Source: Escherichia phage ph0011. Taken from it: 64,000 nucleotides of DNA. The position numbers and the translations under genes were made by a program. The notes below the pieces were generated by a model that saw nothing but the letters and a program-made list of their open reading frames with translations, made no database searches and had not been told where the DNA came from. Below, in pieces: positions 21,876 through 36,973 of this stretch; position 1 is the stretch's first letter, and every line of letters starts with the position of its first letter. The stretch lies in the sequence record OP557969.1; one strand, written 5' to 3'.

Positions 21876-22400
21876 ATGAAATATACACAACTAAACAACA
21901 ATGATACTAATATATGGTTAGGAAATATATCTAAAACACTTGAATTGGTTAAATTCACACTACAAAAATCGGTCGATATTGAAATTAATATTAAGAAAGA
22001 AATATTAAAACATTATCATAAAAATAAATTTTACAAGTTTATTTCTAAATTAATCTATGGGTTATATGATATTGAAGATATTTGTATTGGGTACAGTACT
22101 GGTATTTGTTTCACTACTGATGGTATAATGAATGATTTAAATTTTCGACTAACCCGCGAAGAACAAGATTTTCGTATATTTTGTGATAATATCATGAATG
22201 AAGATAAAATCCAATTTGTGATTGAATTGAGTCAGATATGGTCTGTATATGCAGACAAACCATTCGAAATTAATGAATCAGATATATTAAACTATATTCG
22301 AATAATGAAAATTCATGATTTATGTAAAAACGCATTACTAAGTATTGGAGCCTATGATGAAGCATACGACGTGGTTAAAGATAGCAGAAGTGGTTGCTGA
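21876..22400 (+). CDS. hypothetical protein
   Basis: ORF track; 3' end overlaps cd start. Confidence 0.5.
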   Translation: MKYTQLNNNDTNIWLGNISKTLELVKFTLQKSVDIEINIKKEILKHYHKNKFYKFISKLIYGLYDIEDICIGYSTGICFTTDGIMNDLNFRLTREEQDFRIFCDNIMNEDKIQFVIELSQIWSVYADKPFEINESDILNYIRIMKIHDLCKNALLSIGAYDEAYDVVKDSRSGC

Positions 22401-23356: not shown

Positions 23357-26029
23357 TTAAGCACTGATTGTTACAGTTGCAGTATCTTTTTTATTACCAT
23401 CCACTGTAGTCACTGTAATGATTACAGAACCTTCTTCTAGAGCAGTTACTAATCCATCATCACTAATAGATACTTTAGTAGGTTTATCTGCACTATAAGT
23501 TACTGATTTGTTAGTTGCTTTAGCTGGTAGAACTTCTGGAACTAGTTGAACTGTTTTAGTTCCTGATAGTGAAAGTTCAGTAGTTTTAGGTGTTAAACTA
23601 ACACTGGATACTGGAACTGGAATATTAACGATTACTGATGTTTGACCAGTAACATCACTACCATCAGCGGCAGTAGCGATAATATTTGCAGTACCATTAG
23701 TTAGTGCAGTTACGATACCAGTATTAGCATCTACTTTAGCAATTTCTGGAGCACTGGATGACCAAATTACATTTTTATTGGTTGCATCACTTGGGGTAAT
23801 TGCAGCAGCCATTTGTTTAGTTGCATTCAATGTAGTCAAAGTTTGATCTTTAGGAGTTACATCAATTGCAGTTACTGGCACTGGAATATTAACAGTAATA
23901 ACACCTTGACCTGTTTTACCACTTCCATCAGCAGCAGTTGCGATAATGTTTGCAGAACCGTTAGTTAACGCAGTTACAACACCAGTACTAGCATCTACTT
24001 TCGCTACAGCAGGTTTACTGGAAGACCATGTTACAGATTTATTTGTTGCGTTAGTTGGAAGAACTTCAGCAGCCATTGCTTGAGTTGCGTTAACAGCAGT
24101 CAATGTTTTAGTTGCTGGAGTAACATTAATAGATGCGACTGGAACTGGAATTGCTACAGTTACCGCACATTTTGCAGTTTTTGCTCCATCAGCAGTTGTT
24201 ACTGTGATATCAGCAGTGCCATTTGCTACAGCAGTGATTAAACCAGTTGGACTAACAGTTGCCACTCCATCAGCAGAAGTACTATAAGTTACTGCTTTGT
24301 TGGTAGCATTAGGTGGTAGTACAGTTGGTGTTAGTTGTTGAGTATCACCGACTGAAGTTAATTTAGCACTTGTTGGAGATACTGATACACTTGCAACAGG
24401 AACTGGAATGTTAACAGTTACCACGCAAACTTTAGAAAATCCACCATCAGATGTGGTTGCTGTAATATTTGCAGTACCGTTTGCAACAGCAGTGATTAAA
24501 CCAGTTGGACTTACCGTTGCGACACCCTCAGCAGAAGTAGTGTATGAAATATCTTTACGACGAGCGTTATCTGGAATAACAGATGCAGTTAGTTGTTGAG
24601 TAGCACCTACAGAAGTTAGGGTTGCTGTCAACGGAGTCATATTAATTCCAGTTACTGGGATCGTTACATCAATCACTGATTCAGCAGTTTTAGCACCATC
24701 ATCAGTGGTAACAGTAATAGTTGTAGTACCGTTATCAACCGAAGTTACTAGACCAGTATTACTAACTTTTGCTACGTCTGGATATGAAGAAACATATGAA
24801 ACTGCTTTATTGGATGCAGTTGCAGGAGCAACGGTTGTTTCTAATTGTTTAGTATCACCTAATGTTGAGAATGTATAAGTACTAGGAGTCATTGTGACAC
24901 CAGATACTGGTGTTTTCACTGTGATTGTAGTAGTGTCCGTTTTAGCACCATCTTCGGTTGTAGCTGTAATCACCACTGTGCCGTTAGCCACACCAGTTAC
25001 TAGACCAGAAGTAGGGTTAACAGTTGCTATATCAGGTGTTGCTGAAGACCACGTGACGTTTTTATTAGTTGCATCATCAGGAGATATTGTAGCAGTTAAT
25101 TGTTGAGTACTGCCAACGTTAATTGATGCAGTTTTAGGAGAAACAACAACACCACTAACTGGAGTTGTTACAGTAACAGTACATTTTGAAACAAATGAAC
25201 CATCAACTGTAGTTGCAATTACATCAGTACTGCCATCTGCAATACCAGTTACCATACCAGTTGGACTTACAGTTGCGAAGCGTGGTATACTGGATGACCA
25301 AATAACACTTTTATCACTTGCATCATCGGGTGATACGGTAGCTGTTAGTTGATGAGTTTTACCAACACCAAGAGATAGAGTTGAAGGAGAAACAACAACA
25401 CCACTAACTGGAGTTGTTACAGTAAATGCACAAACATCGGTGAAACCACCATCATGAGTAGTAACTGTTACATTTGCATTACCATTAGCACGGGCAATTG
25501 CTAAACCAGTTTGAGCATCAACTTCAACTATTGTTGGAGCAGAGGAACTATAACTTACTGTTGGATCATTTGCATAATCTGGATTAATTGTAGCTGATAG
25601 TTGTTGTGTGCTACCAACTTTAAGTGCTACTACTTTGGGTGAAATAATAACACCATTAACTGGTGTAGTATAATCACGTTTAACCACACGACCATTGTTC
25701 AATTTAATAATACGACCCATATAAAGAGTAGCATATCCCTTACTAATCCCATCATCTACATAAATCATAAATGAATTGTCTTGAACCATATTAATTGCGT
25801 CTACTGGCTTAACAGTATTTGGAATGTCGATACCACGGGTATCATACCAACACATGGAAACTTTGTAATATATATCACCATTATCATTGATGAGATCATA
25901 CACGTTACTGGAACGTTGACGGTTAATATATAAAGTTTCGGTTAATACCTTACCATCGATTTTAGCGACAGAAACTTTAATACCACCAATACCAAATGGC
26001 AATTTACCTTCACTAGATATTGCTTTCAT
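23357..26029 (-). CDS. Ig-like (Big_2-type) repeat protein, probable virion surface/decoration or adhesin protein
   Basis: 890 aa; about ten tandem ~85-aa repeats of pattern VSGVVVSP..VG.TQQLTATV.P..ATNK.V.WSS..P..A.V...GLVT..A.G...ITATT.DG; late-promoter motif upstream. Confidence 0.8.
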   Translation of the reverse strand: MKAISSEGKLPFGIGGIKVSVAKIDGKVLTETLYINRQRSSNVYDLINDNGDIYYKVSMCWYDTRGIDIPNTVKPVDAINMVQDNSFMIYVDDGISKGYATLYMGRIIKLNNGRVVKRDYTTPVNGVIISPKVVALKVGSTQQLSATINPDYANDPTVSYSSSAPTIVEVDAQTGLAIARANGNANVTVTTHDGGFTDVCAFTVTTPVSGVVVSPSTLSLGVGKTHQLTATVSPDDASDKSVIWSSSIPRFATVSPTGMVTGIADGSTDVIATTVDGSFVSKCTVTVTTPVSGVVVSPKTASINVGSTQQLTATISPDDATNKNVTWSSATPDIATVNPTSGLVTGVANGTVVITATTEDGAKTDTTTITVKTPVSGVTMTPSTYTFSTLGDTKQLETTVAPATASNKAVSYVSSYPDVAKVSNTGLVTSVDNGTTTITVTTDDGAKTAESVIDVTIPVTGINMTPLTATLTSVGATQQLTASVIPDNARRKDISYTTSAEGVATVSPTGLITAVANGTANITATTSDGGFSKVCVVTVNIPVPVASVSVSPTSAKLTSVGDTQQLTPTVLPPNATNKAVTYSTSADGVATVSPTGLITAVANGTADITVTTADGAKTAKCAVTVAIPVPVASINVTPATKTLTAVNATQAMAAEVLPTNATNKSVTWSSSKPAVAKVDASTGVVTALTNGSANIIATAADGSGKTGQGVITVNIPVPVTAIDVTPKDQTLTTLNATKQMAAAITPSDATNKNVIWSSSAPEIAKVDANTGIVTALTNGTANIIATAADGSDVTGQTSVIVNIPVPVSSVSLTPKTTELSLSGTKTVQLVPEVLPAKATNKSVTYSADKPTKVSISDDGLVTALEEGSVIITVTTVDGNKKDTATVTISA
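23560..25700 (-). repeat. tandem coding repeats (~255-bp period) within Ig-like gene, including identical 40-nt segments
   Basis: ggagaaacaacaacaccactaactggagttgttacagtaa occurs at ~25139 and ~25390. Confidence 0.6.
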
Positions 26030-31994: not shown

Positions 31995-32552
31995 ATGTTT
32001 TTTGACCAAACATTTACGTTGTACCATGATTCTGGTAAAGTTGAGATTATTGAAAATCTATTACAGTACATTGCAGATCATGATGGTGTTGAACGTTTCC
32101 ATAGTAAGATGAAATTCGATTTAGCTGAATTCAACAAAAAGAATCGTGAAACTTTTTGGAAGAACCGATTCTATTATGAAATGTTTCCAGAAAGGTTTGT
32201 TGGTTATTATCTTTGTACTGAGAAAGGTTTATTAGTATCTCCAGATTTACTTATGGGTGAATACATGGTTCTCTATAATGAGTACTGGAAAAATAAACGT
32301 AACGCTCGTGACATTGAGTGGAGACATAAGCGTTCGTACATGTACAAACACAACCACTCCCGATACAAACGTCCTAAGACTCAACAAGAGCGTCGTATGG
32401 CGTGTGCAGTACTGAAGGACGAGGGGGAACCTGAAATACGTGGAAGACGTAAGATGCGTTCATTACCATCGTATTGGAACGATATCAGAACAAGACATAG
32501 TACCGGATGGAAATACAGTACTAAGCGTAAAAAACAATACAAAGGGGGCTAA
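31995..32552 (+). CDS. hypothetical protein with basic C-terminus
   Basis: ORF track; SD aaggag. Confidence 0.55.
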   Translation: MFFDQTFTLYHDSGKVEIIENLLQYIADHDGVERFHSKMKFDLAEFNKKNRETFWKNRFYYEMFPERFVGYYLCTEKGLLVSPDLLMGEYMVLYNEYWKNKRNARDIEWRHKRSYMYKHNHSRYKRPKTQQERRMACAVLKDEGEPEIRGRRKMRSLPSYWNDIRTRHSTGWKYSTKRKKQYKGG

Positions 32553-32579
32553 TGCTCCCTATTTTATAGGTTAAACGTT

Positions 32580-33667: not shown

Positions 33668-33901
33668 ATGAAATTTATTTCTATAGCAATTATTTCAGCA
33701 CTCATGATGTTAGTAACAGGATGTGCACCTAAAGTTGATGAGATGGATGCTGAAATCATCCGTCAAGGTTTAACAAAACTAAATCACCAAGGAACACTAT
33801 ACGCATGTCATACTATGCGTCATGGGCAAGATCTTAATCTCATGTGCAGGAAGATTGTGAACCGCAAACGTCTTAATACTGTTCCGAAGGATGCACAATG
33901 A
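33668..33901 (+). CDS. putative lipoprotein
   Basis: signal peptide with lipobox LVTGC. Confidence 0.55.
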   Translation: MKFISIAIISALMMLVTGCAPKVDEMDAEIIRQGLTKLNHQGTLYACHTMRHGQDLNLMCRKIVNRKRLNTVPKDAQ

Positions 33902-34068
33902 AAGAAATAATTGGCTACAAATGTAAAAATTGTGGCAAAGATCAGGGTAAGCATTCAGTACAAGGAATGGCTTGTCCAAATCCAGGGCGTGGTAATTTCA
34001 GAGGATTCAGTACTGAAAAGTCTTATGAACCTGATTATTCAAAACCAGTGATGGGCTATAAGTTATGA
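33898..34068 (+). CDS. small Cys-rich protein (56 aa)
   Basis: CKNC ... C ... coupled ATGA overlaps at both ends; below ORF-track size cutoff. Confidence 0.45.
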   Translation: MKEIIGYKCKNCGKDQGKHSVQGMACPNPGRGNFRGFSTEKSYEPDYSKPVMGYKL

Positions 34069-34441: not shown

Positions 34442-35068
34442 TTGGAGAAAATCATGACTACATCTGAAAAGTACTGGTGGATTATGGGCCATCCTAAATT
34501 CATCAACGGAGATATGGTTCCCCCAAGGATTGATATCGAACCACATGATGTGTGTCCAATCACAAACCGCATTGAATCATTTAAAGCTCTGAATACAAAG
34601 ACACAATTTTGGGTAGAATTCATCTCACCTATGTACGTTGAGCAAGATGATGAATGGGTACAAGCACATGATTATGAGTTAGATTGCGGTGGTGATACTT
34701 ATGATGAGGCAATTGATGCACTATACAAAAATGTACTAAACACTTATGGTGATTACACCCAACAAGAAGCAGACGATACGTTTAATAAGATCCATGCAGC
34801 CATTTCTACATCATCAATTTACAATTCTGCAAAAACAGTTTGGGAAGAACGTCACGGGTGGAGTTCATCTGTAATTGATGCAGAAGCCAAAGAAACAATT
34901 CTCGAAGACATAAAAAATATAAAAAGTACAATAGAAGCCTTGCGTGAATTTATAAAGTCTTGTACAATAGAACAACAGAAAGAGGCAAAGATGCATTTGG
35001 AGAGTGAAGAATGTAAACTTTGGGTTCTAGAGAAATCTATTGAAAAGGGTATAGACTTAGACTTATGA
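34442..35068 (+). CDS. hypothetical protein
   Basis: ORF track. Confidence 0.5.
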   Translation: MEKIMTTSEKYWWIMGHPKFINGDMVPPRIDIEPHDVCPITNRIESFKALNTKTQFWVEFISPMYVEQDDEWVQAHDYELDCGGDTYDEAIDALYKNVLNTYGDYTQQEADDTFNKIHAAISTSSIYNSAKTVWEERHGWSSSVIDAEAKETILEDIKNIKSTIEALREFIKSCTIEQQKEAKMHLESEECKLWVLEKSIEKGIDLDL

Positions 35069-35433
35069 ATCGTAAACTTGAGAAACTAATTGAAGAACTA
35101 CGCCGGATGCCACCCATCGAGCAAGTGGGGAGTTACAAACGTTATCGTGTGATTGCTCGTGCACTAGATAAGAAAGGTCGTGTATTGGCAACACGTACTA
35201 ATTCTTACACACATACTCACCCAGTACAGAAAGGTTTTGCAATCCGTGCTGGAAGACCACAAGGTGAGTTTCTTCATGCTGAAATTTCATGTTTATTAGC
35301 TTCACGTGCTGAAGTTCATACTTTGTTGATTGCACGGATAAGTAAAGATGGTATTCCAGTTCCAGCCAAGCCTTGTGAGATTTGTACGTTGGCAATTATG
35401 GAATATGGGGTCAAAGAAATTATTCACACATGA
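35065..35433 (+). CDS. cytidine/deoxycytidylate deaminase-like zinc enzyme
   Basis: HAEISCL and PCEIC zinc-ligand motifs with typical spacing. Confidence 0.6.
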   Translation: MNRKLEKLIEELRRMPPIEQVGSYKRYRVIARALDKKGRVLATRTNSYTHTHPVQKGFAIRAGRPQGEFLHAEISCLLASRAEVHTLLIARISKDGIPVPAKPCEICTLAIMEYGVKEIIHT

Positions 35434-35654
35434 AAAAAATTGAACGCTACAAAAACCATACAGTTGTGACTGAAGATGATATATTTTATTATTATATTTT
35501 CAGACCCACACACTGTTTACAAATAACGACATTTGAGAATGATAATTTCAAAGATGTCAACTTCCATATAACAGATTTAGCTAAATATTCCAGAACTGAA
35601 CACTTTAGTAATCTAGTATTTGTGTACTGTATTCCAAACTCAAATAATAAGTAG
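35430..35654 (+). CDS. hypothetical small protein
   Basis: ATG 35430 overlaps upstream stop. Confidence 0.45.
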   Translation: MKKIERYKNHTVVTEDDIFYYYIFRPTHCLQITTFENDNFKDVNFHITDLAKYSRTEHFSNLVFVYCIPNSNNK

Positions 35655-36839: not shown

Positions 36840-36942
36840 ACTTGTCATAGGGTGTAGTGCAATTGCTGCATATATGATTTTTTCACCTCCAACCAATGTA
36901 TTACTGCTAATTTGGGCGGTTGTTATATTAGCAGTACTTTAA
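36826..36942 (+). CDS. possible 38-aa hydrophobic peptide
   Basis: MRLAKLVIGCSAIAAYMIFSPPTNVLLLIWAVVILAVL; GGAG 5 nt upstream; terminator follows; not in ORF track. Confidence 0.35.
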   Translation: MRLAKLVIGCSAIAAYMIFSPPTNVLLLIWAVVILAVL

Positions 36943-36943
36943 A

Positions 36944-36973
36944 GCACCCCATAGTGGGTGTTTTTCTTTTTTT
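36944..36973 (+). terminator. rho-independent terminator
   Basis: stem caccc/gggtg followed by 13-nt T-rich run. Confidence 0.6.

Follow-up and report, generated by a model that had tools for sequence, protein, structure and literature searches.

A protein of 122 amino acids (aa) encoded on a 64,000-nucleotide stretch of Escherichia phage ph0011 (sequence record OP557969.1; the whole stretch is referred to here as the window) is a member of the zinc deaminase superfamily that has the cytidine deaminase (CDA) fold. It belongs to a distinct phage clade, called the mini-deaminase family below, which lies nearest to the deoxycytidine monophosphate (dCMP) deaminase family but outside of it. From its conserved catalytic residues and its modeled fold the protein is predicted to be catalytically competent. 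The reading favored in this study, at a probability of roughly one half, is that it is a non-allosteric deoxycytidine-nucleotide deaminase that feeds the synthesis of thymidine triphosphate (dTTP). Its substrate, preferred phosphorylation state, oligomeric state and physiological role are what we infer from the comparisons described below.

Fold, motifs and distribution of the family

A first-pass annotation of the window, made from the sequence letters alone, had proposed that a 122-aa open reading frame (ORF) with HAE...PCxxC spacing encodes a small standalone zinc enzyme of the CDA fold, and it had left the substrate open among nucleotides, nucleic acids and other compounds. The ORF list and direct reading of the DNA confirmed the frame and its motifs (Table 1), and the proposed enzyme class is supported by fold prediction, profile matches and conserved catalytic residues. 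The H-to-C spacing of the protein is 33 residues, a value more frequent in the family than any other (85 of 193 sequences). The specificity of the motif was tested by running a loose regular expression, [HC]xE...[PS]CxxC, over all six-frame segments. Among the 257 segments of the window it matched only the two deaminases, namely this protein and a canonical T4-like dCMP deaminase (T4-like Cd), and the orthologue was the sole match in each of three complete genomes of other phages (with 892, 540 and 465 segments). The HAE...PCxxC motif is not a chance match. The region has 87-93% DNA identity to about 30 Asteriusvirus jumbo coliphages, including EC.P1, 121Q, PBECO4 and Sharanji, and the gene is under purifying selection, with a ratio of non-synonymous to synonymous substitution rates (dN/dS) of 0.039 against 121Q (41 synonymous and 8 non-synonymous differences) and 0.032 against Sharanji.

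The first-pass annotation had named a missing deaminase fold in structure prediction as the outcome that would refute its claim, and prediction gave a deaminase fold. The AlphaFold2 model, built from a 21-sequence alignment, had a predicted local distance difference test score (pLDDT) of 92.0 and a predicted template modeling score of 0.85, and it placed HAE at the N-terminus of helix alpha2 and PCxxC at the N-terminus of helix alpha3. In the model the chain stops at T122, directly past beta4, without helix alpha4 and without beta5, while tailed relatives pass from beta4 straight into beta5. Domain searches agreed on the superfamily. The Pfam model PF00383 was passed narrowly (26.2 bits against a gathering cut-off of 25) by the protein itself and was matched by 70 of 70 diverse family members, with a best E value of 3e-16, and the best PHROG assignment was phrog_174, 'dCMP deaminase' (E 1e-11). 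No NCBIfam model came near its own cut-off for the 122-aa protein. A PDB search with the single sequence gave no significant match, and relatives of known structure were found afterwards with family profiles.

Conservation was counted over 160 sequences with identity down to 27%. The catalytic motif is almost invariant (H71 in 159, A72 in 157 and E73 in 160 sequences), as is the cysteine motif (P103 in 159, C104 and C107 in all 160). The family also has a signature of its own, with the consensus NSYxKTHPxQ, in which N46 (158/160), H52 (149/160), P53 (147/160) and Q55 (141/160) are the best kept positions. R91 is conserved in 157 of the 160 sequences and is invariant in a second alignment; the topology of the model would place it beside the active site. 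About 15 positions are kept as lysine or arginine, including some that, judging by the topology, would lie in the loops flanking the active site.

The family is large and is essentially phage-restricted. A profile search of 1.84 billion cluster representatives found 4290 proteins at E<=1e-3, of which 1011 reached E<=1e-10, and the best 150 profile matches were all 99-166 aa long. The family exceeds 1000 clusters at 50% identity. With tblastn the family was found in 195 of 50,697 phage records, led by T4-like phages of Synechococcus (57), phages of Pseudomonas including phiKZ-like ones (47), and phages of Escherichia (32) and Aeromonas (15), with further carriers among Klebsiella, Salmonella, Erwinia and Yersinia phages. 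Among its carriers are phiKZ-like and Rak2-like phages as well as T4-like cyano- and Aeromonas phages. In IMG/VR a scan by motif added at least 509 confirmed viral loci. An earlier scan of cellular genomes found no locus, and a scan with a closely related motif pattern over one genome per species (185,579 bacterial and archaeal genomes) found 5. All 5 come from metagenome-assembled genomes, on contigs of only 0.7-8 kb, and are probably phage contamination.

Relation to dCMP deaminases and proposed role

The presence of this gene is not in itself new. The protein is 100% identical to the NCBI entry 'CMP/dCMP-type deaminase domain-containing protein [Escherichia phage ph0011]'. Its orthologue in 121Q is gene 490, which is labeled 'dCMP deaminase' and is flanked by PhoH, Sir2 and Nudix genes upstream and by NrdD/NrdG downstream; the counterpart of the window's T4-like Cd, 121Q gene 469, is likewise labeled 'dCMP deaminase'. 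Two cytidine monophosphate (CMP)/dCMP deaminases have also been reported in phage CBB (PMC5259590). A second deaminase in such phages is already on record, as annotation only, and since the gene is annotated in relatives the finding as first stated is an ordinary one. However, no description was found in the searchable literature of the nature of the clade, which is restricted to phages, has very many members, is minimal in structure and strongly basic, and does not carry the hallmarks of dCMP deaminases.

The first-pass annotation also held that the protein is distinct from the T4-like cd gene at 22357, and this was borne out, as the two proteins share 21% identity (pairwise E 0.07) and are not recent paralogues. 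The T4-like Cd is closely related to T4 Cd (PDB 1VQ2, E 2.2e-34), scores 75.7 bits with the Pfam model and carries a HEWS...HAE insertion. A homologue of this T4-like Cd in Sharanji (gp491, WNN14772.1; L093 2993-3472) has been labeled 'tRNA-specific adenosine deaminase' (PMC11895373), and that label is probably wrong.

The hallmarks of dCMP deaminases are assembly into a hexameric ring, an allosteric site marked by G(Y/W)N(A/G) and the contacts of helix alpha4, which touches a loop of the neighboring protomer in the ring (PMC12088426). Two of these defining features are missing from the mini-deaminase. In place of the allosteric motif the protein has R44-T45-N46-S47, and the family consensus is G-x-N-S with a variable position 45 (T in 29, V in 18 and Y in 17 of the 160 sequences); helix alpha4 is lacking because there is no sequence past beta4. 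The 'dCMP deaminase' label on 121Q gene 490 and many relatives stems from a borderline domain match, and with both features missing it is better read as 'CDA-fold deaminase, substrate unknown'. Compared with the dCMP deaminases 4P9C, 2HVV and 1VQ2, the mini-deaminase is without alpha4, beta5 and the T4-type second zinc site, and it has a 10-residue hairpin inserted before PCxxC. The NSYxKTHPxQ motif and R91 occur in the mini-deaminase family only. Family members are also smaller (100-135 aa versus 138-193 aa) and have higher isoelectric points (pI about 9.6-9.8 versus about 6-8.6 for the canonical phage deaminases checked).

Profile comparisons suggest that dCMP deaminases are nevertheless the closest characterized relatives of this phage-restricted clade. 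Searched against the PDB, family profiles matched dCMP deaminases first, namely those of S-TIM5 (4P9C, 2.8e-10), S. mutans (2HVV, 3.6e-8), T4 (1VQ2, 1.2e-6) and human (2W4L, 2.6e-6), with a Mycoplasma TadA-like protein close by (6L2M, 7.9e-8) and cytidine deaminase further off (1.6e-4). The family hidden Markov model (HMM) gave canonical phage dCMP deaminases 32-42 bits and E. coli TadA 19.3 bits. In T4 Cd the deoxycytidine moiety is contacted by V24, N40, A105, E106 and P131 (PMC12697855). These residues align with V29, N46, A72, E73 and P103 of the mini-deaminase, all of which are conserved. However, we take most of them to be conserved in TadA too, so this match discriminates poorly.

In the favored reading the zinc would be bound by H71, C104 and C107, with E73 as the proton shuttle, and hydrolytic deamination would turn the cytosine of free deoxycytidine nucleotides (dCMP, or possibly the di- and triphosphates dCDP and dCTP) into uracil. 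The lack of the allosteric apparatus points to unregulated action, in which case the mini-deaminase would be free of the dCTP/dTTP control that governs the phage's T4-like Cd. A C-rich nucleotide pool, including the products of host DNA breakdown, could in this way be turned into deoxyuridine monophosphate, thymidine monophosphate (dTMP) and dTTP for a genome whose G+C content, as seen in the window, is 33.5%. The G+C content of E. coli is about 51%. Low G+C is common among the carriers, as G+C stays under 45% at 75 of the 80 metagenomic loci of the family.

Beyond profile affinity, the deoxycytidine contacts and purifying selection, the points counted for this reading are the nucleotide-gene context and the AT-rich genomes in which the mini-deaminase stands alone. 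Three complete genomes of distantly related phages, KTN4 (280 kb, of the phiKZ species), 4L372XY (124 kb, from Aeromonas) and Carin-5 (155 kb, from Cobetia), were scanned with the motif, with the family HMM and with phmmer using T4-like Cd, and as a positive control both window deaminases were recovered. In all three the mini-deaminase is the only detectable CDA-fold deaminase. Genes for thymidylate synthase and ribonucleotide reductase are present in each of these genomes, whose G+C content is 36-37%. Their hosts are G+C-rich, at about 60-66%. As the sole CDA-fold deaminase in several AT-rich phages, the mini-deaminase probably helps to shift nucleotide pools from C to T. Additionally, Rak2-type phages encode dTMP synthase, thymidine kinase, deoxynucleoside monophosphate (dNMP) kinase and dihydrofolate reductase (PMC3622015; PMC11895373).

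Charge, shortened fold and alternative substrates

Several observations weigh against the favored reading. The protein is strongly basic (pI 9.84, net charge +9), the fifth most basic of the 112 ORFs in the window, and the family shares this property, with a median pI of 9.57 and 96% of 159 representatives above 8.5. For comparison, the median pI of window ORFs is 5.47, and the values are 7.03 for the window's T4-like Cd, 7.28 for E. coli TadA, 5.42 for E. coli Cdd, and 6.09 and 8.62 for two canonical phage deaminases. Such a charge fits a polyanionic substrate (a triphosphate or nucleic acid) better than dCMP, and the accumulation of lysine and arginine is known to accompany triphosphate preference (PMC12088426). 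The mini-deaminase also co-occurs with another C-to-U enzyme, T4-like Cd in the Asteriusviruses and an annotated Dcd-type dCTP deaminase in Carin-5. Together with the 2 of 35 metagenomic groups in which a canonical PF00383 deaminase adjoins the mini-deaminase (once with an ATGA overlap), this makes simple redundancy unlikely. In the model, the absence of alpha4, beta5 and the allosteric motif would leave closure of the active site unexplained, and structural similarity to TadA, guanine deaminase and cytidine deaminase nearly equals that to dCMP deaminases. Some phage 'dCMP deaminases' prefer triphosphates, 5-methylcytosine or 5-hydroxymethylcytosine (5mC, 5hmC) or single-stranded DNA (ssDNA) and are inactive on dCMP (10.1101/2024.12.05.627091; PMC12697855). 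Finally, no activity measurement for any family member was found in the searchable literature.

The charge and the shortened chain also bear on the main rival reading, in which the protein is a polynucleotide cytosine deaminase that acts on ssDNA or RNA. It could damage or reprogram host nucleic acid, or else edit transcripts of the phage or the host. With the C-terminal elements gone, the active site would lie open, and the backbone would be held by the basic surface. This is consistent with the conserved positive charge and the roughly 15 lysine or arginine positions, with a chain that ends at beta4 and has nothing equivalent to a capping C-terminal segment, and with the co-occurrence of a canonical nucleotide deaminase; there is also precedent, as among 194 soluble homologues of phage 'dCMP deaminases' 56 were active on ssDNA (10.1101/2024.12.05.627091). 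However, charge by itself is weak evidence, since E. coli TadA, a neutral protein, has RNA as its substrate. The families of nucleic-acid deaminase toxins and editors (MafB19, DddA/SCP1.201, SsdA, APOBEC) gave no above-threshold match to the 122-aa protein (MafB19 13.3 bits against a cut-off of 27) and are not its closest structural relatives. Such an enzyme would find a target in the phage's own DNA, which is unmodified, and neither a uracil-glycosylase inhibitor nor another protective partner is conserved nearby. We consider this reading unlikely.

A broader version, that the family is a class confined to phages and comprises the smallest cytosine deaminases in nature that work on polynucleotides or nucleoside triphosphates, is a tentative proposal that we hold to be rather doubtful. 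Such enzymes would act on ssDNA or RNA, in attack on the host or in editing, or directly on dCTP, and would not be redundant dCMP deaminases. They would measure 100-125 aa and lack alpha4, with four or five strands in the core and a net charge near +9. To our knowledge, the family members of 100-122 aa are smaller than the deaminases used in base editors. If the proposal is true, the class would offer an unusually compact base-editor scaffold; the mini-deaminase family is in any case a reasonable target for biochemistry and possibly a compact scaffold of this kind.

Another small molecule could be the substrate. Candidates are cytidine or deoxycytidine (salvaged together with a phage thymidine kinase), free cytosine, a C5-modified deoxycytidine nucleotide, or a cytosine or adenine signaling nucleotide of a host defense system. 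The 33-residue H-to-C spacing, which results from the insertion before PCxxC, speaks for this, and tetrameric cytidine deaminases have a similar spacing. RaK2-type phages also encode thymidine kinase, and the substrate range of phage PF00383 proteins is known to drift. The dCMP-deaminase-like phage enzymes of shifted specificity (mSCD-B5, the XP-12 5-methyl-dCTP deaminase, the PBS1 and PhiR1-37 dCTP deaminases and PBCV-1 bi-DCD, 7FH4) are among the closest known systems. They retain a full-length fold, which in the 154-aa mSCD-B5 is described as a 'prototypical mononucleotide deaminase fold' and which is shortened in the mini-deaminase. Membership among the tetrameric cytidine deaminases can be set aside because the mini-deaminase has HAE, with histidine as zinc ligand, where the homotetrameric cytidine deaminases and blasticidin-S deaminase (about 130 aa) have CxE and a three-cysteine zinc site, and because TIGR01354 scored 12.7 bits against a cut-off of 113.65. 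Unlike in those two enzymes, beta5 is wholly absent from the window protein. Genes for 5mC-selective deaminases adjoin a thymidylate-synthase homologue in 70% of cases on modified contigs (preprint 10.1101/2024.12.05.627091), whereas the 35-group scan found no neighboring thymidylate-synthase homologue for the mini-deaminase family, which argues against a 5mC- or 5hmC-specific enzyme. The invariant R91 and the conserved K50 would suit a phosphate-bearing ligand. For a signaling nucleotide, no defense-related match was found (NF041025 10.8 bits against 400; no PADLOC match), and a defense or anti-defense role was dropped on account of the missing PADLOC match. In sum, deamination of another small molecule appears slightly less likely still than an action on polynucleotides.

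A further reading is a TadA-like tRNA adenosine-34 deaminase acting on phage or host tRNA-Arg(ACG), which we regard as improbable. Profile matches to TadA were weak, at 4e-5 to 1e-1 for PDB TadA entries; for the tRNA-specific deaminase from M. capricolum the values were between 8e-8 and 2e-7. Membership in the TadA family fails on three counts: the helices that follow beta4 in TadA and ADAT2-ADAT3 are absent, NCBIfam gave no TadA model match for the protein, and the HMM score of E. coli TadA is weak. The C-terminal helices of TadA bind the anticodon arm and form the tRNA-binding surface. In addition, there are no tRNA genes within the window, host TadA is essential and already present, and the 'tRNA-specific adenosine deaminase' of Sharanji is a different gene, being the T4-like Cd homologue.

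The least probable reading, and a very improbable one, is that the protein is not catalytic but a remnant or a regulatory subunit, pairing for instance with canonical dCMP deaminase as ADAT3 does with ADAT2. The catalytic residues are kept in at least 157 of the 160 sequences, even at 27% identity, and in the three complete genomes there is no canonical deaminase to pair with.

Gene neighborhood and other features of the window

The coordinates of the gene, its motifs and its neighbors are collected in Table 1. ATGA overlaps at both ends of the deaminase gene place it in a tightly packed plus-strand block, and the upstream overlap suggests translational coupling. The two terminator-like hairpins enclose about 12 small plus-strand ORFs, including the deaminase, and the downstream hairpin may close its transcription unit. 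Matches to sigma-70-like promoters in the region were not above chance (18 versus 24.6 expected).

Table 1. Positions of the mini-deaminase, its motifs and modeled elements, and other features of the window
Feature	Position	Strand	Basis and remarks
Canonical T4-like dCMP deaminase, 159 aa	22357..22836	+	GYNG allosteric motif, HAE, PCYTC
Upstream terminator-like hairpin	32543-32560	+	Consensus scan only
Upstream 208-aa ORF	34442..35068	+	PHROG 16370, function unknown; TGA overlaps deaminase ATG (ATGA)
Minimal zinc deaminase, coding sequence, 122 aa	35065..35433 (stop included)	+	ORF list, ATG start
Family signature N46-S-Y-T-H-T-H52-P53-V-Q55	35200..35229	+	End of beta2 into extra pre-alpha2 helix
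H71-A72-E73 codons	35275..35283	+	Direct DNA reading; zinc ligand and catalytic glutamate, alpha2 start
R91 codon, near-invariant arginine	35335..35337	+	beta3 end, directly before 10-residue hairpin insertion preceding PCxxC
P103-C104-E105-I106-C107 codons	35371..35385	+	Direct DNA reading; two cysteine zinc ligands, alpha3 start
Downstream 74-aa ORF	35430..35654	+	ATG overlaps deaminase stop (ATGA, then A7 run); equivalent to 121Q gene 491
Terminator-like hairpin	36941..36964	+	Consensus scan only
Predicted elements, N-terminal part	alpha1 3-14; beta1 28-34; beta2 40-45; extra helix 53-61 (residues)		AlphaFold2 model
Predicted elements, middle part	alpha2 72-80 (HAE); beta3 86-92; short hairpin (residues)		AlphaFold2 model
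Predicted elements, C-terminal part	alpha3 105-114 (PCxxC); beta4 118-121 (residues)		AlphaFold2 model

No common partner of the family emerged from its neighborhoods. The upstream 208-aa ORF is not conserved beside family members elsewhere, and the neighborhoods in KTN4, Sf-CH5, 4L372XY and Carin-5 are all unrelated. Clustering of neighbors at 77 metagenomic loci gave no cluster present in more than 10 loci, apart from one antisense artifact. A Pfam scan of two genes on each side in 35 non-redundant groups found no recurrent family, and the commonest was that of the 2-oxoglutarate-Fe(II) oxygenases, with 4 of 139 proteins. In three loci of uncultured phages (L070 2719-3461 and L072 2109-2851, both from IMG/VR, and L019 6025-7230) the mini-deaminase lies immediately upstream of a canonical dCMP deaminase of 135-145 aa, with a stop/start overlap (ATGA) in L070 and L072. 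This arrangement hints that the two kinds of deaminase are functionally linked or form a heteromer.

The downstream 74-aa ORF has no Pfam or PHROG match. The possibility of a split gene was considered because its N-terminal sequence, KNHTVVTEDDIFYYYIF, bears a loose resemblance to the beta4-turn-beta5 tail that relatives have (5 of 18 residues identical to family member P0046). However, ORFs downstream of other tail-less members show nothing similar, so the resemblance is probably due to chance and the idea was rejected.

Some further observations concern other genes. Carin-5 (L105 24314-24928 and 18287-19513; L107 1644-2540) carries, besides the mini-deaminase and the Dcd-type dCTP deaminase, two thymidylate-synthase-like genes, and it also has genes for a dNMP kinase, a deoxyribonucleotidase and a nucleoside deoxyribosyltransferase. 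This unusually rich pyrimidine toolkit might indicate modified DNA. In the window, a plus-strand 77-aa ORF with a lipoprotein-like signal peptide (...LMMLVTGC; 33668-33901) overlaps a 56-aa ORF on the same strand whose CxxC...C pattern resembles a small zinc ribbon (33898-34068). At the corresponding position Sharanji has a WGR-domain protein, which is absent from 121Q. Only two of the 112 window ORFs lie on the minus strand, and one of them (23357-26029) encodes an 890-aa protein with about nine immunoglobulin (Ig)-like repeats of the form 'VSPxTxxLxVGxTxQLTATVxPxDAxNKxVxWSS'. Gene 471 of 121Q, which occupies the matching position and is annotated 'structural protein; Ig domain', encodes only 125 aa, which suggests that the Ig repeats have expanded in this phage.

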